DNA of 31,654 nt from a virus. Both the position numbers and the translations under genes were made by a program. Numbering within the stretch: the stretch's first letter is position 1; each line of letters begins with the position of its first letter. Location of the stretch: UHGV virus genome UHGV-1544975, one strand, 5' to 3'. Below are positions 11,171 through 26,370 of the stretch, piece by piece. The notes beneath the pieces were generated by a model, which was not told where the DNA came from, ran no database searches, and saw only the letters and a list, made by a program, of their open reading frames with translations.

Positions 11171-11778
11171 CAGGACAACCTCGCAATGGTAAACTCGTCA
11201 ACCGGTGGCTGTGGTTCCTGTGATTCATTCTGGCTATGCGAGCCAGCACTAAGAATCACGCGATTGTACATATTGAGGGCAAACGTACCGAGGTCTGCAT
11301 TCCCAGTCAGCGCCATGTTAATAGCTGCCGCAAGACGCCAGGCCAACGCCTCCATAAAAATGGCATCAAACATGTTCACATCTGAAACGCGAGAGACATA
11401 CTTGAGCCATGCCTGCGGCTGGTCTGTGTAGATCAACTTTCCTGTTCCGTTGGTGTCTGCACCAACTTCGTACTGAACGCGCATTGCTGCTGTTGGATTG
11501 CGTACACCAGGAAGCATAATTTCAGTAATGCGCAGACAATCGGACGGGTACTGGTACGCATATTCCCAGTCAGGCGGTGGATTGCTCGTATCTGCAAGCG
11601 CCACGCGTTTGGTAGCAAAGTTCCAGTCAAAATCAGAAAGAACAGCATCACGGCAGGCCTCAAAGTGCAGCGAACATTCACCCGCTTCCTTGCTGGCTTC
11701 CGTCAGGCTGTTAATACTGCGGCTGTTGCCAATATTGGACAGCGCACGATTACAGATCTCTACTACAGAGGCCATCAC
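11170..11778 (-). CDS. Tail tubular protein A-like (adaptor), T7 gp11-like (202 aa)
   Basis: N-terminal CNRALSNIGNSRSINSLTE resembles T7 gp11 VNDILASIGEPPVSTLEG from memory; size and position fit. Confidence 0.5.
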   Translation of the reverse strand: MMASVVEICNRALSNIGNSRSINSLTEASKEAGECSLHFEACRDAVLSDFDWNFATKRVALADTSNPPPDWEYAYQYPSDCLRITEIMLPGVRNPTAAMRVQYEVGADTNGTGKLIYTDQPQAWLKYVSRVSDVNMFDAIFMEALAWRLAAAINMALTGNADLGTFALNMYNRVILSAGSHSQNESQEPQPPVDEFTIARLS

Positions 11779-12098
11779 TCACCTCCGTTACCGTACAGAG
11801 TTTCAGCCGCTGATTTTTCTACATCCCTGGAAACAGGAGCGATCGCCATATCAGTGATCTGCAGATCGGCGCTGCGATTAACACCATCGTCAGTTTCTCT
11901 GGCAGACAGGCCTCGAATAACAGCCTTTGCAGTTATCATCACTTCTGTTCCGACGCCCTGAGGTTGCGCCTTCAGCTTATTCAATGTGTCGTTATTAAGA
12001 GTGATGCACAGCCCCCACGGGTATTCATCGCGAGTTCTGGTTTCTCCGCTCTCATCCTGGTAGCTGTCAGTGCCGGTTTTGAGGTTTACGAGTTCCAT
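11775..12098 (-). CDS. Hypothetical virion morphogenesis protein (about 107 aa)
   Basis: Track ORF 11775..12104 begins with GTG; ATG at 12096..12098 has a GGAG RBS. Confidence 0.45.
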   Translation of the reverse strand: MELVNLKTGTDSYQDESGETRTRDEYPWGLCITLNNDTLNKLKAQPQGVGTEVMITAKAVIRGLSARETDDGVNRSADLQITDMAIAPVSRDVEKSAAETLYGNGGE

Positions 12099-12110
12099 AT
12101 ACACTCCTGC

Positions 12111-12130
12111 AATAAAGGGGCCGAAGCCCC
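12111..12130 (-). terminator. Intra-operon terminator/attenuator between head and tail genes (GGGGC-UUCG-GCCCC then UUUAUU)
   Basis: On the minus strand: 5-bp GC stem, UUCG tetraloop, then TTTATT, immediately before the next RBS. Confidence 0.45.
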
Positions 12131-12148
12131 TTGTCGGATTCGCGAGGC

Positions 12149-12493
12149 TTACACGCCCAGTTCTTTACGCTTATCTGCGATCTTCTCGCGGAGCGTTTCG
12201 GCTTTAGCGTTATGGTGTGGCTTCTCGTTAAAGAGCAATTCGTACTCTTCACGGAGCTTATCCAGTTCACCATCATCTGACACATCGTTGATGATTTTGG
12301 TGCTGGTTGCTGCCATAGACACCTTTCCTGCTACCTTTGCTTTTGCCTGTCTGGCTGCATCGTTAACAGGTTCCAGTGCGCTACCAGGCTCACCTTCGTA
12401 TTCGATTTCTTCCCCCTCCGGCCACAGTGTGTTATGGATATGAGAGAGGCGCAGAACGCGGTATCTTGGTTTCTCACCTGACATCGATATCAC
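12149..12493 (-). CDS. Hypothetical head-proximal protein (114 aa)
   Basis: ORF in the late operon, charged C-terminal helix; no family recognised. Confidence 0.4.
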   Translation of the reverse strand: MISMSGEKPRYRVLRLSHIHNTLWPEGEEIEYEGEPGSALEPVNDAARQAKAKVAGKVSMAATSTKIINDVSDDGELDKLREEYELLFNEKPHHNAKAETLREKIADKRKELGV

Positions 12494-12494: not shown

Positions 12495-12932
12495 TTAACC
12501 AGTTACTTTTGAGCGGATCGGGTACGGCGTATTGGCATCAACATCCAGACTGATACCCGCAGTGAATTTGCCGGCCGTTAGTGGGCCAGTTGCGACGGAG
12601 TAGTTAACACGCAGATATCGCTGAACACCGGCAGGCACCTTTGCAGAAACAACTCGTTTACCTGCTGTCAGGGTAGCCTTTGCCAGTGCGCCACTATCAT
12701 AAATAGTGGACCATGAGCTGTTATTCTCACTCGTCTGCAACTGGATGTTTACAGTTGCCTCACCACTTGCCGTGGCGGCTTCGTTAACCAGCACCCAAAA
12801 CTCAAGCGGATAACCCACGCCGATATCGCGACGGTTTCCATCAATTGGACCGAGATCGATTACGTCAGTAGAAGCCGCGGTATTCGTAACCGCCTGAGCT
12901 TCGGAGAACATCAACAGTTTGTCGGTGATCAT
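12495..12932 (-). CDS. Hypothetical protein (145 aa), possible capsid decoration or accessory protein
   Basis: Immediately downstream of the capsid gene, GGAG RBS; composition suggests beta-rich protein. Confidence 0.4.
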   Translation of the reverse strand: MITDKLLMFSEAQAVTNTAASTDVIDLGPIDGNRRDIGVGYPLEFWVLVNEAATASGEATVNIQLQTSENNSSWSTIYDSGALAKATLTAGKRVVSAKVPAGVQRYLRVNYSVATGPLTAGKFTAGISLDVDANTPYPIRSKVTG

Positions 12933-12947
12933 CTTCTTTCTCCATTA

Positions 12948-12967
12948 GTGGGTCTGTTACGACCCAC
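12948..12967 (-). other. Stable stem-loop just after the capsid gene (GTGGGTC-N6-GACCCAC), no U-tract
   Basis: 7-bp perfect stem read directly; between the capsid stop (12984) and the next start (12932). Confidence 0.4.
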
Positions 12968-12983
12968 AGGTTAATAACAGGCG

Positions 12984-13976
12984 TTACACCACGCGGGCTT
13001 CTGTTTCCAGAAGCGCATCAGTTTCACGGATTGGTACACCACGGAATGAAGTCCACCACTCGCCTTCAGTCTCTTTTACGCTGATCGCCAGAGATGTTTT
13101 CTCCAGAGATTGCAGATCAAGAGCCTGGCCTACAGTGCGGTTCATGTAGAACACCGGGCGACCCATTCCACGGTTTGGAATGCGATGCAGTGCTTTAACC
13201 ATCAACTTCGCAATATTTGCGGCAGAGGAAGGTTCTGAAAGATTGCTGACATCGATGTTTGCAATGCGAACAACATAACGCCAGTCACGCAGAGCAAGTC
13301 CGTTGTCCCATTTGTAATGGGTGCGATAGCCTTCGTACTTGCCGCCATTAGCATCTTCCAGTGTCACCTGGCCTTTATCTTCCATCTGGATGCCAGCCTT
13401 CTGCCCTTTCGGGAAGATGCCATGCACGGTGTTTTCGCCCCACACCACTAACCAGATTGAGGTGTTATCTGTACCCGTGCCACCAGCATCAATGATGTTC
13501 TGAGCATTACCCGCAGACAGGCTGGAATAGCGGGAGGACAGTCCCATAAACTGCTGAGGGTTAACGCTGGAATCACCATAAAACAGCGTCTGCGCCATCT
13601 GCTGATTCATCGCTTCAATAAATGCGCGGTCTTCAGACAGGCGGAATTCAGCGGTATTGCCGTTCAGATCAGCCAGTGATTTATCGACTTCAGCATAGGT
13701 TTCCAGCATGCCAACGTAATCGGTTACCTGCACTGTGGTTGATTTGCTTGGCTGTACGCCATAGTTCAGCAAACGCCAGGTAGCTGAAGGTAAACCAGAA
13801 CGAATGGTGGTTCGGTGTCCGGTAGGAAGGTTCCCTTCGACAAAAGGCATATCCTGAAGGATCGGGTTAGTTTGACCGAGAAGCTCGATAATCTTATCGA
13901 CTTTCCCGTTTGGATCGACGCGCTTACCCCAGTCAGCCAGCGTTAGCGCAGTTAAGCCTTTAACAGCCATTGTCAT
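12984..13976 (-). CDS. Major capsid protein (330 aa)
   Basis: Position after portal and scaffold; size typical of podovirus capsid proteins; followed by a stem-loop. Confidence 0.7.
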   Translation of the reverse strand: MTMAVKGLTALTLADWGKRVDPNGKVDKIIELLGQTNPILQDMPFVEGNLPTGHRTTIRSGLPSATWRLLNYGVQPSKSTTVQVTDYVGMLETYAEVDKSLADLNGNTAEFRLSEDRAFIEAMNQQMAQTLFYGDSSVNPQQFMGLSSRYSSLSAGNAQNIIDAGGTGTDNTSIWLVVWGENTVHGIFPKGQKAGIQMEDKGQVTLEDANGGKYEGYRTHYKWDNGLALRDWRYVVRIANIDVSNLSEPSSAANIAKLMVKALHRIPNRGMGRPVFYMNRTVGQALDLQSLEKTSLAISVKETEGEWWTSFRGVPIRETDALLETEARVV

Positions 13977-13984
13977 TTCCTCTC

Positions 13985-14686
13985 TTATTTGCCATAGAGC
14001 ACTTCGGCCGCACTACGCTGGCCTTCATTACCACCGGTGACCATGCCATCTTCAGACATCGCCTTTCCGATTTTCACGAACGTTTTGACCAGATCAGGGT
14101 GATTACCCAGCCCGGTGGTGTTCAGATATTCTTTGAGTTCAGGTGTCCCGAACTGGTCAAGCGCACGCTGTGCGGCGCTAAGGTTAGAAATCAACTTGTC
14201 GCCACCGATTTCTTTGTCAGCTTTTACATCCGCAGCCCACTGCTCGGTTGTTTTCTGCCAGGCTTCTGCCTGGCGCTGCTGAACACCTGCCAGAATCTTC
14301 GGATAAGCATCAACCAGCTTTTGCGCTTGCTCGTTGGTCAGGTTAAGTTCTCGCGCCACCGGCTCGAATTCCTTCAACGCTTCTGTATCCAGCTCTACGC
14401 CTTCGGCAGCCTGAAACTCGTACTTCTCAGGCGCACCCTCTGGTTTATCGCCGTCCTTTTTTTCATCCTGCTTATCGTTTTCAGGCTTTTTGTCATCAGC
14501 AGGTTTATCGCCATCAGCAACAGGTTGTGGCTTATCACCTTCCTGTTGTGATGGATCACCAACTGGAGCAGGGTTATCACCTGCAGGCGCTGACGGTTCT
14601 GACGCAGCCGGAGCTGCTCCACCATCGACTGGTTGCTCATTGCAAAGACGGCGATACAGCAAACGCTCAAATAAACTCATGATCAC
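13985..14686 (-). CDS. Scaffolding protein (233 aa)
   Basis: Acidic, Pro/Asp/Lys-rich low-complexity N-terminal half and helical C-terminal half; lies between portal and capsid. Confidence 0.6.
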   Translation of the reverse strand: MIMSLFERLLYRRLCNEQPVDGGAAPAASEPSAPAGDNPAPVGDPSQQEGDKPQPVADGDKPADDKKPENDKQDEKKDGDKPEGAPEKYEFQAAEGVELDTEALKEFEPVARELNLTNEQAQKLVDAYPKILAGVQQRQAEAWQKTTEQWAADVKADKEIGGDKLISNLSAAQRALDQFGTPELKEYLNTTGLGNHPDLVKTFVKIGKAMSEDGMVTGGNEGQRSAAEVLYGK

Positions 14687-14979
14687 TCCTGTTCACTGGC
14701 CTCTTTGGCCATCTTCAAATACTGTTCAGGGCAATGCGCCATAACGCGCTGAAACAGTTCCAGCGCCAGATTGCGTTGCCCCTCATTAAATGCCATTGCC
14801 ATAGCGTCCATCGGTGAGATAGCGGAAAACACACGGCCTTTCTCCAGCACCGACCAGACAACGCGACGCCCCTGTTCACTGCTCATGACAAAGCGAATGT
14901 CATCAATTTCACGCTGCGCCATGTCACGTTGCTTACGGGCGTTTTCTTCTTTCAGTTGATCGTCTTCGTAATCTGTCAT
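14683..14979 (-). CDS. Hypothetical head-assembly-region protein (98 aa)
   Basis: 4-nt overlaps with both portal and scaffold genes. Confidence 0.45.
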   Translation of the reverse strand: MTDYEDDQLKEENARKQRDMAQREIDDIRFVMSSEQGRRVVWSVLEKGRVFSAISPMDAMAMAFNEGQRNLALELFQRVMAHCPEQYLKMAKEASEQE

Positions 14980-16655
14980 TGTGATTGCCCACCCTGACCA
15001 CTAACTGCATTCGCCATAGCTGACAAAACACTCGGATCCGAAGTTTTAGCTTCGCTTAGCGTCTTGGCCCCCTGTGCCGCCGCCATCCCCATCGCCATCA
15101 TTTGTTGCTGCTGTTGTTGCTGTGCCCGTTGCTGGCGAGCCTGCTCAACCTGTTCCTGCGGAACAATGACGGTTGGAGACACTCCGGACATATCAGCGAA
15201 TGCATCGATCGCCTGATCAACGTTGAGTTTGTCGAGAGCTTCTGGTTTCGCTTGCGCAAGTTGACCAATGAAGTTGACCGTAGACGCCAGACTGGACAGG
15301 CCGATAGACTTCTGCGCCTGAGCCATGACGGAAATGTATTCGACCTTCAGGGGCATACCTTCCATCGCGTCAGGCGGTGGCGGCAGCATGTTTTTACGCA
15401 CCATCATCGAGAAAGCGCGGTCAATGAGAGGATTAAGACATTCGTCGTTCAGACGCTCCAGAACCGGCCCCAACATCAGAAGTTTTTCTTCTTTCATTTC
15501 GATCACTGCTTCAACAGGCATCGAGCGGGTATTGATGTTCTGCAACATCATGAACAGATCGACAAAGTAGGCGCTGTTAATGATTTGACGAGTGTCCTGA
15601 ATGTCTGCTACCAGATCTGCTGTACTGGGGTTAACCAGATAAGCAGGCCTGAAGCCATCCTGACCAGTAATCTGATCGATATACGTGATGTCACCAGGAA
15701 GAAGGGAGGCGCGCTGATTCTTGAGGGAAGTCGGAGCAACCATCGGCGGATTGGTGGCTTTATCAATCAACTGCGACTTGCGCTCCTGGAGAAGTTGCAA
15801 TGCCTTAACAGGTCCAAGCGCCAGCATACCCGGGCATGATGATCCATAAACATCTTCGCCATTAACTTCCCAGCGCGGAGCCATAATTGGAAACTCATCA
15901 AATCCGGACTCACGCAACAACTTGTCGTTATCGCCACCAACCTCGTAATAAACCGATTTGAATGGCTTGTTCTTGCTATCCAGCTTCGATGTATCGCGGT
16001 CAATGTTCGGGTAAACCGAATGCATCACTTCAATCCACTTCTCGTAGGTGCCGCTTTCCCACATGCTTTTTACGGATTCGCTGACGTTATTTAGTCCGAA
16101 CTCCTGAACAAGCTGACGAACAGTCATAGAGAACTTGCGAAAACAGGTGTCCACACTGCCACGAGGTGAGTTAGCCAGGTAGTAACTTCCTATCGGGAAT
16201 GGCATTGTACGAATGATGTCCTCGTCATCCTCCAGCACCGCCATTGCGCCAGTGCTGTATGTGCCGAGGCTTCCGTATAACTGCGGCAGCGACTGATAGA
16301 GATTCGACTTATTGAACATATCGTTCATGCGGTTCTGCACCGCCTCAAGCCACAACTTAACAGGGCCATAATCCATCATTTCAGGATCTGGCGTAGCCAG
16401 GCGAAACCACGGACGCGCGGGGCTTGTGATGCATGACATCATGCCGCTGGCGAGAGTGCGCGCCGCCATAGTCCCGGTCGAATCAATAATGCGTGTATTG
16501 CGTCGATCGTTACGGTTGACCTCAGAAGTCAGAAAGCGGGAACCACGCGGGTTGATGTAATCACTCAACTCGCGCCAGTGCGGCTCGAACGACTGACGCT
16601 CGCTTTCAAGTTGTGCGAACTGTTTGTTCCATCGCTCTTTAGTTGTTTCCGCCAT
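14976..16655 (-). CDS. Portal protein (559 aa)
   Basis: Size, position after terminase and before scaffold, Gln/Ala-rich flexible C-terminus. Confidence 0.7.
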   Translation of the reverse strand: MAETTKERWNKQFAQLESERQSFEPHWRELSDYINPRGSRFLTSEVNRNDRRNTRIIDSTGTMAARTLASGMMSCITSPARPWFRLATPDPEMMDYGPVKLWLEAVQNRMNDMFNKSNLYQSLPQLYGSLGTYSTGAMAVLEDDEDIIRTMPFPIGSYYLANSPRGSVDTCFRKFSMTVRQLVQEFGLNNVSESVKSMWESGTYEKWIEVMHSVYPNIDRDTSKLDSKNKPFKSVYYEVGGDNDKLLRESGFDEFPIMAPRWEVNGEDVYGSSCPGMLALGPVKALQLLQERKSQLIDKATNPPMVAPTSLKNQRASLLPGDITYIDQITGQDGFRPAYLVNPSTADLVADIQDTRQIINSAYFVDLFMMLQNINTRSMPVEAVIEMKEEKLLMLGPVLERLNDECLNPLIDRAFSMMVRKNMLPPPPDAMEGMPLKVEYISVMAQAQKSIGLSSLASTVNFIGQLAQAKPEALDKLNVDQAIDAFADMSGVSPTVIVPQEQVEQARQQRAQQQQQQQMMAMGMAAAQGAKTLSEAKTSDPSVLSAMANAVSGQGGQSQ

Positions 16656-16669
16656 TTCAATGACTCCGG

Positions 16670-16876
16670 TTACTGACCAAGCAGCGTTTTACCGCTGGTA
16701 TTAGCGGTTGATGTGTCGCCCTGAGAACCGGTAAGCAGCGTAGAACTACGACCAGCAGCAGCGCGACGGCGACGAGTTTCTTCGTCGCGGGCATCAACAA
16801 CGGCGGCATCCTGCTCCTGTGGTGCTGCCTGAACTTCTGGTGTTGCAGGCACTGACGGTGAGCTACCCATGCACAT
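16670..16876 (-). CDS. Small Ala/Ser/Thr-rich protein (68 aa) preceding portal
   Basis: RBS context CGGAGTCATTGA before the ATG is repeated before the portal start; alternative frame 16657..16896 lacks this. Confidence 0.4.
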   Translation of the reverse strand: MCMGSSPSVPATPEVQAAPQEQDAAVVDARDEETRRRRAAAGRSSTLLTGSQGDTSTANTSGKTLLGQ

Positions 16877-16965
16877 ATCAATGACTCCGTACGCAATTAA
16901 ATTATTACCAATTTAACCACATATGATTTATTTATCGTAGACAGTTGACATTTAATGCACGAATT

Positions 16966-16982
16966 ATTACCTTTCAGGTAAG
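16966..16982. promoter_or_regulatory. Operator-like palindrome ATTACC-TTTCA-GGTAAG upstream of the portal operon
   Basis: One of about nine copies of the ATTACC-N5-GGTAA motif. Confidence 0.45.
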
Positions 16983-17303
16983 TAAATGGTTCATTCCGGT
17001 TATTAACCTGACTGGCTTGTCGTTAAATTGAACAGGTGGAGTGAGCTTTTATTTTGAGCAGTACGGCGTATGGCACATGCGCCGATAGCGGTCTGGATAC
17101 GTTTAAGGGGCACCCTCCCTTGCTCGGGCAAACGAACCAGGTAGCCGGAATGTGCAAGTCGAGCGGTTTTATTCCGCGCACGGGGATTCACCATCCCGGC
17201 GATTCGGTGTGACGCCTCGGAAGAGACGAGGGTACAACGATGAGAGCATTTATGGAGCCGCGACAAAGTGTGGCGCCTTAACAGGCTAAGTGCTCTCAGC
17301 GTT

Positions 17304-17380
17304 GTGGCATTAGCTCAGTTGGACAGAGCAACCGCCTTCTAAGCGGTTGGTCGCAGGTTCGAATCCTGCATGCCACGCCA
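17304..17380 (+). tRNA. tRNA-Arg (anticodon UCU), 77 nt including 3' CCA
   Basis: Folded by hand: perfect 7-bp acceptor stem GTGGCAT/ATGCCAC, D-stem GCTC/GAGC, anticodon stem ACCGC/GCGGT, loop CTTCTAA, T-arm GCAGG-TTCGAAT-CCTGC, discriminator G, CCA. Confidence 0.9.
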
Positions 17381-17423
17381 GAATCACGCCTAAGGACCGT
17401 GATGCCAGAAGTTCCAGGTGCTT

Positions 17424-17465
17424 GGCGGTGATGGTTTCCCTTGAAGGACTATCACCGCCCTTTTT
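17424..17465 (+). terminator. Rho-independent terminator after the tRNA (GGCGGTGAT...ATCACCGCC then CTTTTT)
   Basis: 9-bp stem plus T-run. Confidence 0.6.
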
Positions 17466-17543
17466 ACAGCAGGACGCCATTGCGATGACTTCATGCTGTA
17501 AACCAGTACAGCCACGGAAGGCATAACTCATTGCTTCCAGTTC

Positions 17544-17567
17544 GCCCGGTTCGCCGGGCATTTTTTT
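17544..17567 (+). terminator. Second terminator-like hairpin (GCCCGG-UUCG-CCGGGC then 7 T) directly upstream of the DUF2829-like gene RBS
   Basis: 6-bp GC stem, UUCG tetraloop, 7-T tract; RBS AAGGTGAG follows immediately. Confidence 0.6.
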
Positions 17568-17578
17568 AAGGTGAGATT

Positions 17579-17875
17579 ATGAGCGAAACATCAACAGTAT
17601 CTTTCTCCACTGCTTTGTCATCACTCAAAGATGGTAAGCGCATTGCACGTGCCGGATGGAATGGCAAAGGCATGTATCTGCAACTGGTTAAGCCACCGCA
17701 ATCGGCCACTCCGAACGAGTGGCGATTTGACGTTACATGCGGTGACGAGTATACATTTGTACCTGGCGTTAAACTTCTACCGTGGATTGGGATGAAAACT
17801 GCTGACGGTTGCTTTGTACCGTGGCTGGCATCTCAAACCGATCTGCTATCTGATGACTGGATTGTAATTCAATAA
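17579..17875 (+). CDS. DUF2829-like small protein (98 aa), candidate Tad2-like anti-Thoeris protein
   Basis: Strong RBS; motifs ARAGWNGKGMYL and PWLASQTDLLSDDW match my recollection of DUF2829; opposite strand to flanking late genes. Confidence 0.5.
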   Translation: MSETSTVSFSTALSSLKDGKRIARAGWNGKGMYLQLVKPPQSATPNEWRFDVTCGDEYTFVPGVKLLPWIGMKTADGCFVPWLASQTDLLSDDWIVIQ

Positions 17876-17895: not shown

Positions 17896-17922
17896 AGCCA
17901 GCCTATGAGCTGGCTTTGTTTT
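17896..17922. terminator. Terminator hairpin (AGCCAGC-N6-GCTGGCT then TTTGTTTT) at a convergent gene junction
   Basis: 7-bp stem with T-rich tail on the plus strand. Confidence 0.5.
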
Positions 17923-17965: not shown

Positions 17966-19441
17966 TTAAGCATAGGGATCGTAATCTGTAATGGCCTTGC
18001 CTTGCTGGTTCTGCTGACCTGGAATTCGCAGACGCTTCGACACAGGGAAAGCAAACGTCAGCAATAGCGCATCGCCTTTACCAGGAGAACGCCCAAGCCG
18101 CTCCTTGATATCTTCCTTCGGTTCGATAACGATTTTACCGTCCACTCGAACTTTGTACTCTGCCGCCGACAGGTCGTCCGCTGTTTCCTGGTCATCAAGC
18201 ATGCCGCCCAGCCTCAGCCATGTCTTGCATGAGTTGAACATCTCCCCGCGCTTATTGAGCATCTGCGGGTCAGTAGACGCGCCACCGAACGGAACAAGTT
18301 GCCATGTACGACCCCAGCCATCACCGATTGACTTCAGACCAGTTCCGTAACCGAAGTCGATGAACACTGCGTCAGCCTGGTACTGGTCTTCAAAGTCAGC
18401 GATACGCTTCGCCATAATCAGATCGTCAGTGGTCTTGTTGCCGGTCCACAGCACCTTACTGTGCAGCCCCTGCCGCAGATATATCACCGCGTCATCAACA
18501 CCGGAGTATGCCGGGTCAACGCCGATTATCACCGGAGCATGTGCAACCTGCGCAGCGGTGACCACCCGTTTCATTGCCTCGTCAGTAAGTCCGGTAGGGA
18601 TAAACTGCAATTCAGATGCATCCGGGAATATGCCGCGCACACGGATTTTAACGAAGTCGCTATCTTCCCCGTAGTCATCAACCCATTTCTGCAACTGCTG
18701 TTTGTTAGTGCCTTCCACCGTCCGGCTGTCAATCTGCGCAGTTTTCCAGCGGTGTTTGTATTTGCGGAAACATTCGCGAAAACGCCCGGTATTACGTGTA
18801 GGGTTTCCGAACGCCACCCAGATAATCTCAGTGTCTTCGTCCGTAAGCGCACCCTCAGCAACTTCCCACACCAGATCCGCAATGTTCGACGCTTCATCGA
18901 ATACCACGATGATGCGTTTGCGCTCGTTGTGTAGTCCGGCGAATGCCTCAGTGTTGTGCTCAGACCAGGGGATTGCGTCAGCTCGCCACCGCTTGTCGTG
19001 CCCAGGATCATTGCTGTACATCGCAGTAGCGGTACAGGTAAACCAGTCTTTCGTGATAGCAAGGTTCGACCACTTGATAATTTCCGGCCAGGTCTTCGTT
19101 CGTAGCTGGTTGTCGGTGTTGGCGGTCACCACGACCTTACAATCCTCGCAAGTGGACATGCCCCAGTTGATCAGCATTGAGATGAATGCGGATTTACCAA
19201 TACCGTGACCCGAAGCACGTGCCAGCATAAGCGGCTGATAGCGCGTCTCTGGATTCTGCAGGTGATCACGTATCTCTCGGAACGCATCAGCCTGCCACTG
19301 ACGTGGGCCGGTAGCATGTGCCAGTTCAGTCCCCTCTTCCCCCCACGGGAACGCATAGAGGGCATAGCCAAGCGGATCGTGAGTGAACCCTGCAATATCC
19401 TCGATCAACTGCTCTTCAGGAGATAACGCTGTATCTGTCAC
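17966..19441 (-). CDS. Terminase large subunit (491 aa)
   Basis: Walker A-like GHGIGKS, Walker B-like IIVVFDEAS, acidic C-terminal nuclease-like region; overlaps the small-subunit stop. Confidence 0.9.
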   Translation of the reverse strand: MTDTALSPEEQLIEDIAGFTHDPLGYALYAFPWGEEGTELAHATGPRQWQADAFREIRDHLQNPETRYQPLMLARASGHGIGKSAFISMLINWGMSTCEDCKVVVTANTDNQLRTKTWPEIIKWSNLAITKDWFTCTATAMYSNDPGHDKRWRADAIPWSEHNTEAFAGLHNERKRIIVVFDEASNIADLVWEVAEGALTDEDTEIIWVAFGNPTRNTGRFRECFRKYKHRWKTAQIDSRTVEGTNKQQLQKWVDDYGEDSDFVKIRVRGIFPDASELQFIPTGLTDEAMKRVVTAAQVAHAPVIIGVDPAYSGVDDAVIYLRQGLHSKVLWTGNKTTDDLIMAKRIADFEDQYQADAVFIDFGYGTGLKSIGDGWGRTWQLVPFGGASTDPQMLNKRGEMFNSCKTWLRLGGMLDDQETADDLSAAEYKVRVDGKIVIEPKEDIKERLGRSPGKGDALLLTFAFPVSKRLRIPGQQNQQGKAITDYDPYA

Positions 19442-20034
19442 TGATTACCATCCTGACGTTCTTTGAGTCGCTTCCTGGCTGCTGCTATGCGATCAGCAAT
19501 TGTCACATTCACATTAACATCCAGACGTTCTTTGAACGCGTTGACATCAACATGCTTACCAATCAGCTCAAGGTTCTTCACCTTGTCAGGCCATTTAATT
19601 TTTTTGAGGATTGTCTCTATCGAATCCTCGTTCATGTTCATGATGGTCGATGACAGATCAAAGCCACTAAGCGTAGTGCGCCAGATTTTCGGCCACTCAC
19701 GGATTGGTTTAAGGCTCCCATCGTCGTTGAGGATGTCGATCACGTCCATCTGGTCGATCTGCACCAGGCGCATGAGAACGTAATCAGCACTGACGCGCAT
19801 TCGTTTGTTGCGCTCCTCCATCAACTCGGCAATCCGTTTTTGAATGCGTTCATCGCGCATCATGACACTGGCTTTAACTGCCGCTGTATTTGGGGAGAAT
19901 CCTGCGTTAATCGCTGCCTGAGTCTGGTTTTCAGGCGTTTTGATGTATGACTGGCAATAAGCCTCCTGCATTGCTGTTAGTGGCTTAAATTGCGTTGATT
20001 TGCGTTTATAGGTTTTAGGTTCAGCAGGCATCAT
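19438..20034 (-). CDS. Terminase small subunit (about 198 aa)
   Basis: Small-terminase-like DNA-binding N-terminus (TAMQEAYCQSYIKTPENQTQAAINAGFS); track start 20112 is probably over-extended; tandem ATGs at 20034 and 20031 follow GGTGG. Confidence 0.65.
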   Translation of the reverse strand: MMPAEPKTYKRKSTQFKPLTAMQEAYCQSYIKTPENQTQAAINAGFSPNTAAVKASVMMRDERIQKRIAELMEERNKRMRVSADYVLMRLVQIDQMDVIDILNDDGSLKPIREWPKIWRTTLSGFDLSSTIMNMNEDSIETILKKIKWPDKVKNLELIGKHVDVNAFKERLDVNVNVTIADRIAAARKRLKERQDGNQ

Positions 20035-20050
20035 AACCACCGTGGTAATA

Positions 20051-20067
20051 GTTACCGTTGTGGTAAT
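20051..20067. promoter_or_regulatory. Operator-like palindrome (minus-strand reading ATTACC-ACAAC-GGTAAC) with an extra GGTAAT half-site, just upstream of the terminase gene
   Basis: Motif copy read directly; lies inside the spurious N-terminal extension of the track ORF. Confidence 0.45.
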
Positions 20068-20069
20068 AG

Positions 20070-20103
20070 TACCATACAAAATAAAGCCGCCATAGTTGGC
20101 GGC
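20070..20103 (-). terminator. Rho-independent terminator (GCCGCCA-N4-TGGCGGC then UUUAUUUUGUAU on the minus strand) separating accessory genes from the terminase operon
   Basis: 7-bp perfect stem, T-rich tail on the minus strand. Confidence 0.55.
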
Positions 20104-20144
20104 AGTATTCAAAACCCATCAAATTCATCATGCATAATCTACTC

Positions 20145-20156
20145 GTGACATGTCAC
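20145..20156. repeat. 12-bp perfect palindrome GTGACATGTCAC, copy 3 of 3
   Basis: Exact match; overlaps the stop codon of 20153..20494 in the same register as copy 1. Confidence 0.8.
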
Positions 20157-20494
20157 ACTATTAATTTCGTTTCATGCCAGCCTTTAGTCACCCAGCATTG
20201 CGAGTCACCATTACACGGGCATGAATTAACTGGAACTCTCTCGCCGCACTTACCGCAACATTTTCTGCTGATCGATTTTATACGCCCGCGCACGCGTGCA
20301 TCATCCTGGCGGATCAGTAACGCTATATACTCACCAAATTCGTAAGGCGCACGCCCGGGGCGACGCGTGGCACAGTTACGCTCCAGCATTTCAATTTCCT
20401 GAGCATCCAGCACAATCTCCAGCTTACGTACACCGGATGCAGCTTGTCTGGCTCTCTGAGCGGCTTTGCGCTCTGCTGCTGATTTAGCCATCAA
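20153..20494 (-). CDS. Cys-rich small protein (113 aa), possible zinc-binding regulator
   Basis: Basic N-terminus; C-terminal cysteine cluster CCGKCGERVPVNSCPCNGDSQCW; sits where lambdoid phages carry Q. Confidence 0.4.
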   Translation of the reverse strand: MMAKSAAERKAAQRARQAASGVRKLEIVLDAQEIEMLERNCATRRPGRAPYEFGEYIALLIRQDDARVRGRIKSISRKCCGKCGERVPVNSCPCNGDSQCWVTKGWHETKLIV

Positions 20495-20765
20495 TATTTA
20501 CCTTTATCGCGAACACCTTTACCGGTTTATCGCCGAAGTGCGGATGTGTGATTGTCTTGATTTCATATCCGTCATACGGAATATCAATTCTGCGGCTGGA
20601 ATCGTCGCGCTTCGGATATCCCTTTGTGATAATCAGACGGTCATACTTACGGTTAACGAGTCGCTTTTTCCAGTAGTCATTACACAAGCGATACTCTTCC
20701 GTTTTCTCTCCGCGAATCATGGCATTGAAGTATTCACCTTTTACGGCAAGTTGCAGGTTAGCCAT
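20484..20765 (-). CDS. Small protein with possible ASCH/PUA-like fold
   Basis: Likely start at the internal ATG overlapping the upstream stop; LQLAVKGEYFNAMIRGEKTEEYR resembles ASCH-domain N-termini. Confidence 0.35.
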   Translation of the reverse strand: MANLQLAVKGEYFNAMIRGEKTEEYRLCNDYWKKRLVNRKYDRLIITKGYPKRDDSSRRIDIPYDGYEIKTITHPHFGDKPVKVFAIKVNIDG

Positions 20766-21025
20766 TACCGCACCTCCAGTCTCCATACCGCCTGACCAAT
20801 CCGGCTGGCATGGTTATCTTTAGATACTGTTCCGTCTTTAGCAATCTCCATAAGAATTTTGCGCAAATCTGCCGAGCGCCATTCTTCATCAGGAAATTCC
20901 TTCTCCATTGCCAACCGCAGATTCCAGGTTGCTATCGTGAATGGATATTCCCCGCCGAGAGCTTTCTCTTGCAAGGCAGCACGGGAACGCATCACCTGCA
21001 AAACCTTCTCTTTTACATCCATCAT
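20765..21025 (-). CDS. Hypothetical protein (86 aa)
   Basis: ORF translationally coupled to neighbours. Confidence 0.4.
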   Translation of the reverse strand: MMDVKEKVLQVMRSRAALQEKALGGEYPFTIATWNLRLAMEKEFPDEEWRSADLRKILMEIAKDGTVSKDNHASRIGQAVWRLEVR

Positions 21026-21840
21026 TTTGCCTCCTGCGGCGGTTCTGGTAGCTGCATCCAGTGGGTTACCTCTTTGAGATACAGGTCTTCGCCATCACCG
21101 TCATCCCAAGTGGGATTGCCATCATTAAACCAGTCGCCATATACGCCGACCTGAGTGTTGGGGATGTTTGGTGGGTAGTTGTTTTTAAAGTCAGCTGCTA
21201 ACACATAGCATTGTCGCTCTCCCATTTCTGGCATCTGCTCACTACAGCTTATCCAACCATCCGGAGTTACCGGAGAATTGCCACCCTGAACAGTAGGCAT
21301 ATCCGGACCTTTGCGAATCGCCCTGGCAAGATCGATTGGGTCGTCGTACAACCAGTCACCTGTTTGCGGATGATTGGCTTCTGCCAATTGTGCAGCCCAC
21401 TCCAGGCCGTCTTTGTGTCCTTGCAGATAGTCCAGCGGTAACTCATCACTATTACTTACAGGTTCGGCCTGAAGCATGGCGGCGCGGCAGGCGTTCCAGC
21501 CGACAGCTTTTCCGTGTTCAAACGCGCTGTCAAAGTCATCATCAATTTCCATCGCAGCGGGCACAGATACCGGCGCTGGCGGGGCGGTGTAAAGCGGCGT
21601 TACTTCTCGCAGCGGGTCGGCATAAGCATTGCCACTATCGAAGCTGACGTTGTTTTTTGCCCCGCCTCCTGACAGCAACCACGCCACCGGCTCCTGCTCC
21701 ATGCCAGCCGTCAGCGCTTCCAGTGCGATTTTGAAGATTTGCGCATCGAGTTGCGCTTCTTCAAAATCAGGGTAATGGGTTGTTACCGCAAGACGGCGCT
21801 CAAGCTCCTCAATCAACTGCTCTTTCGTAAATTCAGCCAT
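21022..21840 (-). CDS. DUF551-like C-terminal domain protein (272 aa)
   Basis: C-terminal ...GWISCSEQMPE...VTHWMQLPEPP matches my recollection of the DUF551 signature common in enterobacterial prophages. Confidence 0.5.
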   Translation of the reverse strand: MAEFTKEQLIEELERRLAVTTHYPDFEEAQLDAQIFKIALEALTAGMEQEPVAWLLSGGGAKNNVSFDSGNAYADPLREVTPLYTAPPAPVSVPAAMEIDDDFDSAFEHGKAVGWNACRAAMLQAEPVSNSDELPLDYLQGHKDGLEWAAQLAEANHPQTGDWLYDDPIDLARAIRKGPDMPTVQGGNSPVTPDGWISCSEQMPEMGERQCYVLAADFKNNYPPNIPNTQVGVYGDWFNDGNPTWDDGDGEDLYLKEVTHWMQLPEPPQEAK

Positions 21841-21844
21841 ATCC

Positions 21845-22216
21845 CTACTCCCCCTTGATGCCAGCGGCGCTAAGCTTGGTATTCACATCACCTTCAAAAA
21901 TAGGCAGTACACCAATTGCAGCGGCCCAGTTTTTAGCTAACTCAGGGTCAGATGTCTCGTCGGTGTAGTCTGATGCCCGCCACCCAATCAGTCGTTTCTG
22001 ACCAGGAATGTCAGAGTTTCGCTTCTCCGTTGCTTGCTCTAGAGCATTAAGAAGTGTACGTATTTCATGCTGCTGAGTAGAGATGCTTGAGTCTTTGGCT
22101 TCCAGCTCATCAAGCAGCGCCAGCACATCCCGAGTGGGGACCATAAAGTTCGGCATGAAGTTATCTTTTGCCTTTTCTGCTGTTAGGCGCAGCGCCTGTT
22201 TGTCGATGTTGCTCAT
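21845..22216 (-). CDS. Hypothetical coiled-coil protein (123 aa), possibly Ead/Ea22-like
   Basis: Position and composition only. Confidence 0.35.
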   Translation of the reverse strand: MSNIDKQALRLTAEKAKDNFMPNFMVPTRDVLALLDELEAKDSSISTQQHEIRTLLNALEQATEKRNSDIPGQKRLIGWRASDYTDETSDPELAKNWAAAIGVLPIFEGDVNTKLSAAGIKGE

Positions 22217-22866
22217 TGCGCGTCCCCCTTGCGAATCTGGGCGGCGATGTCTTCGAGTACACCATCAGCGAACGAGCGATCGAAATCGCCTTCCGGCGCA
22301 TCATCCATAAACTCTGTGGAGGTCAGTATCATTCGTGCGATGTCCGCAGCGTTCTTCGCTGTGTCTTCGATAAACCCAGCCTCCCATGCAGCCAGCATTC
22401 GGTTGGCAACAAAGTGAGCGCCTTCCTTGTGGGCTTGCGCCCGCACTTCAGCCAGGAAAGCATCGGTGGCTGGAATGGGCTTTTGTGGTGATATAGCAAT
22501 GCGAATTGTCTCAAGGTCTGGATCTGTTTCCGCTGCTGGCACCTTGATATAACCCACCTGCACCCCATTCATGATGAACCTGCGACGGTCATCACATATC
22601 GCCTTTAGCCCCGCATTCTCCGCCGCCAGCGCCGAAAACTTCTCGTGTGCCAACTTAACAGCTGCATCAGCCTGCTTAATTGACTCAATCGCTTTCTGTT
22701 GGTCTTCGGCCAGCGCATTAGCACGCACCAGTTGCACTTCCAGTTGCGTTGCCAAATCGCTGATCAGCTTTGCCACACTGCGCATATCAACGGCACCACA
22801 TTCTGCTTTCAGTTCCGAAGCCATCTCATGCCCGGCGGAAACTAACCATTTGATATTACCGTCCAT
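22213..22866 (-). CDS. Hypothetical protein (217 aa), Ala-rich coiled-coil N-terminal half
   Basis: ORF with 4-nt overlap to the next gene. Confidence 0.4.
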   Translation of the reverse strand: MDGNIKWLVSAGHEMASELKAECGAVDMRSVAKLISDLATQLEVQLVRANALAEDQQKAIESIKQADAAVKLAHEKFSALAAENAGLKAICDDRRRFIMNGVQVGYIKVPAAETDPDLETIRIAISPQKPIPATDAFLAEVRAQAHKEGAHFVANRMLAAWEAGFIEDTAKNAADIARMILTSTEFMDDAPEGDFDRSFADGVLEDIAAQIRKGDAQ

Positions 22867-22927
22867 CTTTACCCTCGCTTATCCACATAACTTATTGATT
22901 ACATTGATAACTAAAAAGATCGTCGAT

Positions 22928-23272
22928 TCAGAACTCTTCGATGTTCCAGCCACCACCTGCTTTCTTTGGCTTAACCGTTACCCCGATGATTCGGAACGGA
23001 TACTGATCTGCGGCGACTTTGGTTTTCACTCTGGCGTCATCGGTCCAGAAACCTTTCACTTCGTGTAGTTCCATCTCGCCGGTGGCGAGCATCACAGCAA
23101 AATCGGGCGTATAGAACGTGTTGTCAGCTAACCGCAGCTTGATACCCTCGAATCGATACCAGGCGATTTCCCCTGCACGTTTACGCAGCTCAAGGTGCTG
23201 GCAATACGCAGATTCTGTTTTGTTCATCTGGCCTGTTTTGAGTCGACCAAGAGCCTGTATCTGTTTTCTCAT
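22928..23272 (-). CDS. Small protein with PD-(D/E)xK nuclease-like motif (DUF1064-like?)
   Basis: Motif ...YTPDFAV...ELHEVKG consistent with a D...(D/E)xK core. Confidence 0.35.
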   Translation of the reverse strand: MRKQIQALGRLKTGQMNKTESAYCQHLELRKRAGEIAWYRFEGIKLRLADNTFYTPDFAVMLATGEMELHEVKGFWTDDARVKTKVAADQYPFRIIGVTVKPKKAGGGWNIEEF

Positions 23273-23274
23273 GA

Positions 23275-23353
23275 TTTACCTCTAAGGTAATTAAAAACCA
23301 CATAAGACACGAAATCAATAGAGTTTAGAATATTTTATTACCCAACAGGTAAT
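23275..23353. promoter_or_regulatory. Two operator-like palindromes (TTTACC-TCTAA-GGTAAT at 23275..23291; ATTACC-CAACA-GGTAAT at 23337..23353)
   Basis: Read directly; the first abuts the start codon of 22928..23272. Confidence 0.5.
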
Positions 23354-23389
23354 TATCAAGGCGTAAAAAAATGCGCTATCGCGCTGGTA

Positions 23390-24190
23390 TTACTTGATAA
23401 ATCCTGCCGCCTTTCCCCGCCTGTATTCCTCCATCAGCCACTGCGCCGGTGTTATTCCCCCAAGGGTGGCGGCGTTAGGCATGCACCCGAAACTTCGCCC
23501 TGGTGGATGGTAAACGTCTCTCCCTGTGTCCGGAGGCGTACTCATGGGTTCTGGCTTTGCCTGTATGCTGATCACCGGATCGGGTATCTGCTGTCCGGAA
23601 GCCACCTTTTTCGCCCAATCATCGAGCAGCCTGCGCGCGTGTTTCTCAACCTCTATCTCGCTAAGCTGGCGCTGATACATTGCACGGCGGGTATCACATA
23701 CGACCCAGTACATAACCGGATGCCGCCACGGGAATCTTTCGGGACCACCAGGATATAAACTTTTTTCCTTGCTGTACCGGTGAAACTCCGTCATCACATC
23801 GTCAATGGTGACGCCAAGAACCATCTTGCTGTCTTTGCACCACTTGATGAATTGCCCTGGCGACGGCCAGAACGGAGATTCACTGGCGCGGGCGTGGCGC
23901 ATACCAGCAGAAACCTGTTCACGGGTTCGGATCCCCCCTTCGGCAAACGCAGCAATCCACTGCTGTTTTGCAGCAACTTCCTGCTCTGGCGTCTTCAGGT
24001 TGGTTACCACTGCCGCCGGAAACAGTTGTTTCAGCTGTTTGAAAAGGGCATCAACAAGCCTCTCTGCTGACATGTTCACCACGTTGTCATTGTTGGTGTA
24101 CTGATGCTCATAACCTGACATGCGAGAAAGGGCTTCTCCGTCACGGTTTTGTATCGCGGTAAAAACGTTGTTCACAAGAAATCCTCCCAT
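23390..24190 (-). CDS. Replication protein P-like (helicase loader), lambda P family
   Basis: Segments FPAAVVTNLK...QQWIAAFAEGGIRTREQVSAGMRHARA...PFWPSPGQFIKWCKD align with remembered lambda P FPASLANRD...RRQWVLAFRENGITTMEQVNAGMRVARR...PFLPSPGQFVAWCRE. Confidence 0.75.
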   Translation of the reverse strand: MGGFLVNNVFTAIQNRDGEALSRMSGYEHQYTNNDNVVNMSAERLVDALFKQLKQLFPAAVVTNLKTPEQEVAAKQQWIAAFAEGGIRTREQVSAGMRHARASESPFWPSPGQFIKWCKDSKMVLGVTIDDVMTEFHRYSKEKSLYPGGPERFPWRHPVMYWVVCDTRRAMYQRQLSEIEVEKHARRLLDDWAKKVASGQQIPDPVISIQAKPEPMSTPPDTGRDVYHPPGRSFGCMPNAATLGGITPAQWLMEEYRRGKAAGFIK

Positions 24191-24987
24191 GCTTCAGGGC
24201 TGTTCCAGTGCGGAACGTTGTTATCAGGTAATGTTGATTGCTTCTGTCTGCTAATCTGCAGCCGCCTTGCCAGCTTCTGCTCCCACTGTGCCTGATGGTA
24301 TGCCTTACCCTCAGCCATCCAGTAAATTCTGAACTCTGCAAGTTCCTGTGCCGTTGGCAGACTGTCCAGGTAGATCCCCTGCAAGGAGCTTTTCCGAAGA
24401 AAGTCATCTGATGGCTGCCATTGTTCATGCATGACAAATTTGCCTAATTGCCCTGGCCCACCAGGAGGAACAAAGTTATTCATCACGGCGTTGTTTGCGC
24501 CGGGGTCATGAGGCACAGAATCCCCGTTTTTTGTCCTGCTCTCCCTCTCTTGGTTAAATGACTGGTTATATGACTGGTTCTGGATCCCGTTTTTGGGATC
24601 ATTCAACATCCCGTTTTTGGGATCATTCAACATCCCGTTTTTGGGTATATTCCCGTTTTCGGTAACATTACCGTTTTCGGGTTCATTGCCCCCCTCCCGG
24701 TTGCCTTTAATGTTCCCGTTTTTGGTTATATTAAGAGAGAAAACCCGCACTCTTTTCGTCGCTCCCTTTCTCTCTCCGGTATCTGAAATAAGCCCCATTT
24801 TCATGAGCGATATAAGCCCGGCCTGCACGGTTTTTTTATTCAGGCAAGTGTCTTTAACGAGGCGTTCTATGCTGGGGTAGCAGAGGTTATATTCATCGGC
24901 TCTGTCAGCCATCGAGAGCAGTATGAGCTTTAATGACGAGCTACCTGGATCTGTCTCCCAGGCCCAATCTGTTGCATGTCTGCTCAT
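24172..24987 (-). CDS. Replication initiator, lambda O-like (271 aa), with embedded iterons
   Basis: N-terminal HTH-like region; central Asn/Gly/Pro-rich repeats encoded by tandem DNA repeats; immediately upstream of the P-like gene. Confidence 0.65.
   Translation of the reverse strand: MSRHATDWAWETDPGSSSLKLILLSMADRADEYNLCYPSIERLVKDTCLNKKTVQAGLISLMKMGLISDTGERKGATKRVRVFSLNITKNGNIKGNREGGNEPENGNVTENGNIPKNGMLNDPKNGMLNDPKNGIQNQSYNQSFNQERESRTKNGDSVPHDPGANNAVMNNFVPPGGPGQLGKFVMHEQWQPSDDFLRKSSLQGIYLDSLPTAQELAEFRIYWMAEGKAYHQAQWEQKLARRLQISRQKQSTLPDNNVPHWNSPEAWEDFL
24585..24732. repeat. Iteron array (putative replication origin) inside the O-like gene
   Basis: TCCCGTTTTTGGGATCATTCAACA occurs twice in tandem, followed by degenerate copies (TCCCGTTTTTGGGTATAT, TCCCGTTTTCGGTAACATTA, CCGTTTTCGGGTTCATTGCC, TTCCCGTTTTTGGTTATATT). 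Confidence 0.65.
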
Positions 24988-25002
24988 GATTAATCTCCGC
25001 TA

Positions 25003-25203
25003 TCAGCTTGAATATTGTGGGGAGGAATTAATCATGATCTGCTTAATCTCTGCCCTGATGCGACGGTTTGATTCCATGGTGCACTCAACACAGTGTCCGT
25101 TGTAAACCCAGCGTTCACTGTCATGTCCGTGCTTACATGGTTTTCCGGTGTAGTAGCGTTTAAGTCCGCGCTTTGCGGCATCAATACGTGTAATGATTTC
25201 CAT
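25003..25203 (-). CDS. Small zinc-finger-like protein (about 66 aa) in the cII position
   Basis: Cys/His cluster YTGKPCKHGHDSERWVYNGHCVEC; start assumed at the internal ATG; track start 25266 possible. Confidence 0.35.
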   Translation of the reverse strand: MEIITRIDAAKRGLKRYYTGKPCKHGHDSERWVYNGHCVECTMESNRRIRAEIKQIMINSSPQYSS

Positions 25204-25282
25204 GGTAAGCCCTGTTATTAGTATTTGGATTACGGTTATTTTGTGCTGACACAAAAAAAAGATCAACCAGATTTGGTTTTTT

Positions 25283-25298
25283 ATTACCTTTGAGGTAC
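25283..25298. promoter_or_regulatory. Imperfect operator-like palindrome ATTACC-TTTGA-GGTAC
   Basis: Read directly. Confidence 0.35.
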
Positions 25299-25353
25299 GG
25301 ATAGATATGAAAAGACCGCCGGGTGGCGGTCTACAGAGGGTTGTAGCTGGATA

Positions 25354-25584
25354 TCATGAGTAGAAGAAGTATGCCAGTTCTGCTTTTGAGCGCAGCCATT
25401 GTCTTGTTTTACAGGCTTTAAAAAGCCCATTCATCAATACTTTACCTGGCATTTTGCGCTTACCTGTTAAGTGAGTCTGGATATAGTGACTCGTCGTTCC
25501 GGCTTCCTGTGCGAAGGCTTCACGCTCATCCGGAGTAAGTGCAAGCCAGTGCTTTTTGAAATCGAAATGTCCGTTATCGCTCAT
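25354..25584 (-). CDS. Cro-like small HTH regulator (76 aa)
   Basis: First gene of the minus-strand replication operon, divergent from the repressor-like gene; helix-turn-helix-like segment. Confidence 0.45.
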   Translation of the reverse strand: MSDNGHFDFKKHWLALTPDEREAFAQEAGTTSHYIQTHLTGKRKMPGKVLMNGLFKACKTRQWLRSKAELAYFFYS

Positions 25585-25738
25585 AGCTATTGCCTGATAT
25601 TTATTTCAGATAATAAATATTCACCCATAAGGTAACAAAAATCAAGGATAGTTACCTATGGGGTGCATTTACCTGTTGGGTAATATTGCTTTAAATTGAA
25701 TCATCTACTGATTCATATATGAGGCGATTTTCCAGAAA
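25585..25738. promoter_or_regulatory. Immunity switch intergenic region with divergent promoters and operators
   Basis: AT-rich inverted repeat ATATTTATT-N6-AATAAATAT (25597..25620); half-sites GGTAAC (25631..25636) and GTTACC (25651..25656); palindrome TTTACC-TGTTG-GGTAAT (25668..25684); possible minus-strand promoter TTGTTA-17-TATTAT. Confidence 0.55.
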
Positions 25739-26323: not shown

Positions 26324-26345
26324 AACCATAGTTTTCAGTAAGTAA

Positions 26346-26370
26346 GCCGCCTCATGGCGGCTTTTTTATT
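26346..26370 (+). terminator. Rho-independent terminator after the repressor-like gene (GCCGCC-TCAT-GGCGGC then TTTTTT)
   Basis: 6-bp GC stem plus 6-T run. Confidence 0.65.

Follow-up and report, generated by a model that had tools for sequence, protein, structure and literature searches.

The window, i.e., the whole stretch of 31,654 nucleotides analysed here, carries at positions 17304 to 17380 a genuine and intact argU-like tRNA-Arg(UCU) gene, in which all the structural hallmarks of a working tRNA can be read, and this tRNA is an accessory, optional passenger of a conserved non-coding module, to which it is not essential. Directly upstream of the tRNA lies a structured RNA of about 245 nt, which is very probably real and absent from Rfam 15. 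The window belongs to the phiV10/epsilon15-like type (Uetakevirus) of temperate phage or prophage, and the region around the tRNA is 98 to 99% identical to phiV10, TL-2011b, the O157 typing phages 9 and 10, phiv142-3, and other Uetakevirus podoviruses. The tRNA gene is defined as follows.

17304 to 17380, plus strand: tRNA-Arg(UCU) gene, supported by ARAGORN, the Rfam tRNA model, alignment with argU, and identical copies in E. coli Uetakevirus prophages.

ARAGORN returned one tRNA for the whole 31.6-kb window, i.e., this tRNA-Arg with the anticodon tct. The Rfam tRNA model (RF00005) matches 17304-17377 over the full model with 73.3 bits (gathering score of 29; E = 1.9e-14); no non-canonical pair is flagged in the match, and the cloverleaf has the required stems of 7, 4, 5, and 5 bp. 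The coordinates, the anticodon, and the acceptor-stem letters given in a preceding sequence-only reading were exact according to ARAGORN, Rfam, and direct reading, and the check that it had proposed (tRNAscan-SE or ARAGORN), carried out with ARAGORN, yielded a single intact tRNA-Arg and not a pseudogene. When the sequence is read directly, all four stems are entirely Watson-Crick, including the 7 pairs of the acceptor stem GUGGCAU/AUGCCAC, and the acceptor stem is followed by the discriminator base G73 and an encoded CCA at 17378-17380. The nucleotides responsible for tertiary contacts (U8, A14, G18G19, U33, G53-U54-U55-C56, and A58) are present. The identity set of E. coli tRNA-Arg consists of A20, C35, U36 or G36, and position 73 (G73 or A73). 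The alignment shows A20, C35, U36, and G73 in the phage tRNA, as in argU, and the phage tRNA is accordingly a predicted substrate that should be charged by the host ArgRS.

Direct alignment with E. coli argU, for which the reference was taken from its fimZ/intD locus, gave 64 identical bases out of 77 (83%). Ten of the 13 differences form five compensated stem pairs that are Watson-Crick in both tRNAs, i.e., pairs 2-71, 4-69, and 6-67 of the acceptor stem and pairs 30-40 and 31-39 of the anticodon stem, and the remaining three are located in the D loop and the variable loop, so that the differences are spread across both halves of the molecule. The 7-nt anticodon loop CUUCUAA is the same in both, and the anticodon, D arm, T arm, G73, and CCA are otherwise as in argU, the minor AGA decoder. 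The acceptor stem of argU is GCGCCCU/AGGGCGC, compared with GUGGCAU/AUGCCAC in the phage tRNA; the sequence-only reading, which had given the argU stem and described the phage stem as unlike it, was right on both counts. The compensated differences and the preserved identity elements together indicate that the tRNA is neither a pseudogene nor a copied attachment site.

That the gene might instead be a host-derived copy of argU, a remnant of an att site, or a decaying pseudogene without function had to be considered, since many temperate phages use tRNA genes as integration sites and contain pieces of them, and argU itself is an integration site that adjoins the intD gene of DLP12. Neither near identity to a host tRNA nor adjacency to an integrase, the two features that were looked for in the phage tRNA, was found. 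About 500 E. coli records contain this tRNA at 95% identity or more; in complete E. coli genomes otherwise, the best match is 85.9% identical over positions 7-77, and in both loci that were fetched this match is argU beside fimZ and intD. In contrast to argU, which adjoins fimZ, the phage tRNA is encoded in a phage accessory island. The integrase of the window is the ORF at 30404-31654, 13 kb from the tRNA, and in the prophage of E. coli E2865, which is located next to guaA and has an identical tRNA, the integrase is 14.6 kb from the tRNA. In the related phage vB_EcoP_ZX5, for which one tRNA was reported, attP and attB were mapped to the 3' end of guaA (PMC9782041). The gene is full length, each of its stem differences from argU is compensated, the prophage integrates at guaA 13 to 15 kb away (PMC9782041), and the gene is conserved at 99% identity or more in 339 E. 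coli records and kept in Salmonella and Klebsiella phages as well; the alignment and the site of integration already refute an origin as an argU copy or att remnant, and we regard this whole group of explanations as exceedingly improbable. The earlier proposals that the tRNA is not a copied host attachment site and that it lies far from the integrase were borne out by the 83% identity, the insertion at guaA, and the distance to the integrase in both the window and the homologous prophage.

The finding is correct but ordinary, in that the tRNA is already known and annotated in related phages: a tRNA-Arg is annotated in phiv142-3, the O157 typing phages 9 and 10, SPC32H/SPN9TCW, the Klebsiella phage ST512-KPC3phi13.3, and RefSeq E. 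coli prophages. In these it occupies the same slot, between a small ORF on the portal side and the terminase, with 100% identity to some of the prophage copies; the gene itself is essentially the same, whereas the downstream cargo differs (Tad2-like in the window, Gp49-family and other proteins elsewhere). Phage-borne tRNAs for codons that are rare in the host, AGA included, are also carried by lambdoid Stx phages (ileZ-argN-argO) and by T4. The contexts of those tRNAs are unlike that of the window, because the Stx-phage tRNAs are located in the late region upstream of stx and the T4 tRNAs form a cluster of their own. Taken alone, the tRNA adds little, being another rare-codon tRNA of a temperate phage that is annotated in its relatives.

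The codon usage of the window indicates a demand for such a tRNA. In 38 ORFs of the window (9,688 codons), AGA and AGG occur 6.5 and 3.1 times per 1000 codons, respectively (sum of 9.6; 15.6% of Arg codons), compared with 1.26 and 0.59 per 1000 (sum of 1.85; 3.5% of Arg codons) in a sample of 37 K-12 genes taken from one 50-kb stretch only. The two codons are thus about 5-fold commoner in the phage than in this sample (odds ratio of 5.2; Fisher p = 3e-15). The count of AGA and AGG in phage and host genes had been proposed with the sequence-only reading, and its result agrees with the premise that both codons are rare in the host. Within the window, the early genes are richest in AGA and AGG (12.4 per 1000 codons), with a peak of 40 per 1000 codons in the ORF at 29267-29566; the codons are frequent in the tail/ejection and early genes (898-12493 and 20153-30209) and nearly absent from the capsid, portal, protease, and terminase genes (12495-16876 and 17966-20112), which means that the most abundant proteins are not in need of the tRNA.

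On the other hand, usage does not track carriage within the genus. When one uniform ORF heuristic was applied to four phages, the sum of AGA and AGG per 1000 codons was 10.1 in the window and 10.1 in SPC32H, both of which have the tRNA, and 11.2 in PAT1 and 12.0 in Tyrion, both of which lack it. Since the tRNA-less phages use these codons at least as often, codon usage does not explain why the tRNA is carried, and the comparison is a caution that high AGA/AGG usage alone is not an explanation of phage tRNA carriage. The suggestion that the tRNA may support translation of phage genes is therefore backed by the 5-fold excess of its codons, but not by the similar usage in tRNA-less relatives or by the virion genes, which have almost none. 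Demand for tRNA-Arg(UCU) exists, and codon supplementation is plausible and is the best-supported role, although it is unproven and is not discriminated by the comparison within the genus.

The genes on either side of the tRNA, i.e., portal (14976-16655) and large terminase (17966-19441), are all on the minus strand, and the tRNA lies between them in a short island on the plus strand. At the start of the island, the promoter scan and the palindrome count gave two fused elements.

16938 to 16967, plus strand: sigma-70-like promoter with TAGACA, an 18-nt spacer, and AATTAT (promoter scan).
16967 to 16981, no strand assigned: operator-like palindrome TTACCTTTCAGGTAA (TTACC-N5-GGTAA), fused to the -10 element AATTAT (palindrome count).

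The first of these is a candidate promoter of the non-coding and accessory unit on the plus strand, and its transcripts are predicted to start near 16975. The palindrome TTACC-N5-GGTAA occurs at 10 sites in the window, where 0.48 are expected, and none of 100 shuffles reached 10. The sites start at 16967, 20034, 20052, 23276, 23338, 25284, 25621, 25669, 26381, and 26443. Those at 25621 and 25669 are in the cI/cro intergenic region, those at 26381 and 26443 are located just downstream of an HTH repressor gene (repressor-like ORF 25739-26323, with an HTH_3 domain), and the others are in intergenic or promoter positions. A PL-like promoter beside the repressor gene, at 26416-26457, has the same AATTAT-TTACC-N5-GGTAA layout as the island promoter. 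The fused motif AATTATTACC-N5-GGTAA is common to the two promoters. The ten palindromes are likely to be operators of the phage repressor, and the island would then be under repressor control and be switched on early after induction or infection.

The downstream half of the island contains two terminators, one protein-coding gene, and a final hairpin.

17413 to 17464, plus strand: terminator T1, with a stem at 17424-17459 followed by CUUUUUACA (terminator scan and conservation).
17544 to 17567, plus strand: terminator T2, GCCCGGTTCGCCGGGC followed by ATTTTTTT, with its hairpin at 17544-17559 (terminator scan and conservation).
17579 to 17875, plus strand: cargo ORF for a 98-residue Tad2-like (Thoeris anti-defense 2-like) protein (Pfam PF11195; 85.7 bits; E = 3.1e-24).
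17896 to 17915, plus strand: terminator-like hairpin that ends the island ahead of the convergent large-terminase gene (terminator scan).

A hairpin of the T1 type, GGCGGU...ACCGCCC-UUUUUACA with a covarying stem, is found 3' of the structured RNA in most of 41 lineage representatives, and many lineages have a T2-like hairpin, GCCC...GGGCA-UUUUUUU, some 100 nt 3' of T1. The homology to close relatives stops near 17567-17587 of the window, and the cargo slot is filled by other genes in relatives, e.g., those for Gp49-family or DUF2829 proteins. Like T1, the DicF sRNA (RF00039) has a terminator hairpin in an early operon, UUGGCGGU...ACCGCCC-UUUUU. When the T1 regions were compared with the Rfam DicF model (gathering score of 48), the matches were full length but below threshold; BUCT554 scored 22.3 bits (E = 0.02), whereas the window reached 13 bits and SPC32H 12.6 bits, and no DicF was annotated in RefSeq among the T1 homologs listed. 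Membership of T1 in the DicF family was rejected because each copy tested was below the gathering score, and the likeness is kept as a resemblance. A region of P1 annotated as dicF-like (269-370 of the P1 stretch examined) resembles T2 of the window by eye. A riboswitch-like attenuator, in which a hairpin after the tRNA would pair with T1, was also noticed by eye and rejected, as the pairing is not conserved in mEp460.

The explanation of the whole that we favor, and which we consider probable, is that an intact tRNA-Arg(UCU) in an early island serves as an accessory supplement to the decoding capacity of the host. Upon prophage induction or infection, the island promoter would be freed from the phage repressor, RNase P and the 3' processing enzymes would cut the tRNA from the primary transcript, and the host ArgRS would charge it. 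The charged tRNA would then add decoding capacity for AGA, and for AGG by wobble, chiefly to the benefit of the early and tail/ejection genes. The location in an early accessory island with an anti-defence protein as cargo (Tad2-like) also fits a role as a spare, in which the phage tRNA replaces or outlasts a host tRNA-Arg(UCU) that is cleaved by an anticodon nuclease or toxin triggered by infection, e.g., a colicin D-like one. Stems that have diverged from argU with function preserved would be in keeping with such a role, as would the presence of the tRNA within the genus, which does not track codon usage, and there are documented cases of phage tRNAs escaping from defences directed at tRNAs (PMC10264068). 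The documented escape, however, is by mutation of the anticodon loop (PMC10264068), and the anticodon loop of the phage tRNA is that of argU; moreover, no defence system against tRNA-Arg(UCU) was identified in the present analysis. We therefore consider a role as a spare unlikely.

The space between the island promoter and the tRNA is occupied by the structured RNA, which consists of two parts.

17061 to 17235, plus strand: structured RNA core with P1, P2, a junction helix, P4, and P5 (covariance model R1 and covariation).
17235 to 17304, plus strand: helix P6, formed by 17235-17248 with 17291-17304 around a variable insert (compensatory variants and alignment).

The core of about 175 nt and P6 together make up about 245 nt (17061-17304) and comprise no fewer than six helices plus a pseudoknot. 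P1 and P5 are hairpins, P2 is a helix, and the P4 hairpin has a CACC/GGUG pseudoknot between its loop and the sequence downstream. An invariant 19-mer, GGTAGCCGGAATGTGCAAG, is located at 17140-17158 in the core, and in the alignment of copies invariant blocks alternate with variable hairpins. P6 was seen in 94 of 134 copies, and its variants GAGAGCA/TGCTCTC, AAGAGCA/TGCTCTT, and GAGCGCA/TGCGCTC are compensatory.

A manually derived structure was tested for covariation on 26 diverse copies. In this test, 98.8% of the cells are paired, compared with 27 to 44% in slid controls, and in 10 pairs both partners change (55 cells). Covariation was scored at 0.234, compared with 0.110 for shuffles, and none of 500 shuffles reached the observed value. 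The alignment was turned into a covariance model, R1, which gives 141.8 bits on 17061-17235 of the window. Single-sequence folding of 17040-17303 gave weak z-scores of -2.25 and -2.61 on the two strands; the folding energy alone is thus uninformative, and covariation is needed to recognize the RNA. The many G-U pairs in the helices assign it to the plus strand. The automatic RNAalifold consensus, in which invariant segments were paired and the local hairpin P1 was lost, was rejected and replaced by the manual structure.

In a search of the whole window with Rfam 15 at the gathering threshold, the tRNA alone matched, and no match to the upstream RNA was obtained at E of 10 or less in 16850-17600. 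A literature search with invariant sequence strings of the RNA found no relevant paper. Kinship with the Pas sRNAs of a 2026 preprint was rejected, because these belong to the late Q/holin region and have no relation to the RNA. A coding reading of the region was rejected as well: the distances from one conserved anchor to the next fall in every class modulo 3, the many G-U pairs are valid on the plus strand only, and the minus-strand ORFs 17003-17266 and 17310-17561 have no Pfam match and are probably spurious. The minus-strand ORFs over the RNA and the tRNA are recorded as hypothetical proteins in phiV10, TL-2011b, and BUCT554, and as mEp460_037 in the lambdoid phage.

In the RNA copy of the E2865 prophage (19758-19932 of the stretch examined), A is replaced by G in the 19-mer and U is replaced by C in the GGUG strand of the pseudoknot; these substitutions at two otherwise invariant positions may represent decay in a resident prophage. 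T-arm-like sequences of the form GGTTCRAWTCC were observed in the P6 inserts of SPC32H (about 2180-2285), Stx2a_WGPS2 (about 2690-2750), and BUCT554 (about 1690-1745; positions are those of the stretches examined). RF00005 did not match these inserts, the nearest hit being a 15.5-bit tRNA-Sec in BUCT554; in SPC32H, tRNA-Sec also matches the antisense strand of the real tRNA with 18 bits. The inserts may be tRNA fragments or tRNA-like modules.

The distribution of the RNA is much wider than the phiV10 group. The region of about 17063-17303 has matches in lambdoid phages unrelated to phiV10 (cdtI, mEp460, 2H10, Ayreon, and Stx2c and Stx2a phages), in P1, P7, D6, SJ46, and RCS47, and in Klebsiella and Enterobacter phages as well as one phage recorded as infecting Stenotrophomonas. 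The matches outside the phiV10 group are always on the local transcription strand and almost never annotated. The 19-mer was found in at least 120 stretches of IMG/VR, which, pooled with the fetched copies, gave 109 unique sequences in 41 clusters, and in 24 stretches of GTDB species representatives, all of which are Enterobacterales except two metagenome bins. According to BLAST, the core is present in 1,839 of 5,426 complete E. coli genomes (34%), at 1,916 chromosomal and 554 plasmid places, and none of the 40 E. coli matches listed had an annotated feature under the core.

Among the phages, each genome has a single copy of the RNA, i.e., there is no left/right pair. In mEp460, a terminator follows the cI stop, and next come two operator-like TTGC-N7-GCAA sites that accompany a PL-like promoter. 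The RNA lies about 40 nt downstream of these and is succeeded by a strong U-run hairpin and the first early-left ORF. In the lambdoid relatives, the RNA thus occupies the nutL/putL position. The commonest context in E. coli chromosomes is a repressor gene, of differing immunity types, followed by the RNA and yfdP-yfdQ-yfdR. In P1, the core (NC_005856, 71023-71191) is flanked by trnI and ban within the ban operon, which is under C1 control, and is unannotated in the record; this operon also has tRNA-Asn, tRNA-Thr, and the dicF-like region.

A tRNA follows the RNA in 29 of the 134 copies, where it is always tRNA-Arg(UCU) and always directly 3' of P6. The other 105 have no tRNA in that slot, and those of the P1 type have a tRNA-Ile2 about 170 nt upstream. 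The accessory status of the tRNA follows from this minority of carriers and from the codon usage shared with tRNA-less relatives. The outermost pairing of P6, CAAC/GUUG, takes in G1 of the tRNA, i.e., 17304 is the last paired G. The tRNA-less copies read ...GTTG-TGG-TGAAT or ...GTTG-TGG-TAATC at this point, and GUGG is therefore kept. Among eight natural variants of the tRNA, the acceptor stem is paired in all; its 5' strand GUGGCAU is invariant, and its 3' strand varies (CCAC, CCGC, and CUGC), which gives rise to G-U pairs. Because GUGG is kept in tRNA-less copies and the 5' strand is invariant, the conserved tail of the RNA falls on the first four acceptor-stem nucleotides. The sequence-only reading was right that the acceptor stem is not host-like, in that it differs from argU, but missed this overlap with the upstream RNA. 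The overlap is compatible with two histories, namely grafting of the tRNA onto the tail of the RNA or, in the tRNA-less copies, a deletion by which four bases were spared.

The constant slot abutting P6, with G1 of the tRNA as the last paired base, raises the question of whether the tRNA acts chiefly as a signal for RNase P and 3'-end processing, which would free the upstream RNA and fix its 3' end, as well as the 5' end of the hairpin RNA that follows, with decoding being secondary. The GUGG tail shared with tRNA-less copies and the invariance of GUGGCAU in the eight variants next to a variable 3' strand with G-U pairs are consistent with such a role. Nevertheless, a canonical tRNA with ArgRS elements and CCA far exceeds the needs of a processing signal, and 105 of the 134 RNA copies do without it, so that we hold a role mainly in processing to be quite unlikely and retain codon supplementation as the preferred role of the tRNA.

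As to the RNA itself, our tentative proposal, reached by analogy, is that it represents an undescribed phage RNA family and may be a cis-acting, protein-independent antiterminator, like the put RNA of HK022 yet unrelated to it. Antitermination in cis is the single likeliest function among those considered, though still a doubtful one with a speculative mechanism; a trans-acting early RNA, involved in host takeover or counter-defence, is slightly behind it and nearly as likely. As an antiterminator, the RNA would let polymerase that starts from repressor-controlled early promoters pass T1 and T2 into the early and accessory genes, and its transcript would carry the tRNA-Arg and the DicF-like hairpin along as passengers. 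For the lambdoid LLS, with CI and Cro closest to their mEp460_4F5 counterparts, an N homolog is reported to be missing, and a put-like RNA mechanism was guessed (PMC12315714). The arrangement of the RNA is of the put type, i.e., promoter-proximal in an early operon, ahead of terminators, and presumably without N, given the reported absence of N from the relative LLS (PMC12315714). In the lambdoid relatives, its position (PL-like promoter, RNA, terminator, and early-left genes) matches that of the annotated putL-like RNA of HK639 and resembles that of HK022 putL. The put RNA of HK022, on the other hand, is about 73 nt long with two stem-loops (PMC9378689), and the RNA described here, with a core of about 175 nt and a total of about 245 nt, is about three times larger and has another architecture. 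Homology to the put RNAs was rejected, as the covariance model R1 gave no match to HK022 or HK639 at E of 10 or less; a faint resemblance to the putL-like sequence of HK639 is seen by eye.

The RNA is of interest because it stands at the start of repressor-controlled early transcripts on three unrelated phage backbones and in about one-third of complete E. coli genomes. If it is an antiterminator, it could supply the mechanism guessed for the N-less LLS (PMC12315714) and would become only the second type of RNA with a known action of this sort on RNA polymerase. Should it instead act in trans as an early RNA, its place beside an anti-defence gene would make it a candidate RNA-based factor of host takeover or counter-defence. 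The record of HK639 also has an annotated M3-like RNA, located downstream of cII at 37910-37969 of the stretch examined.
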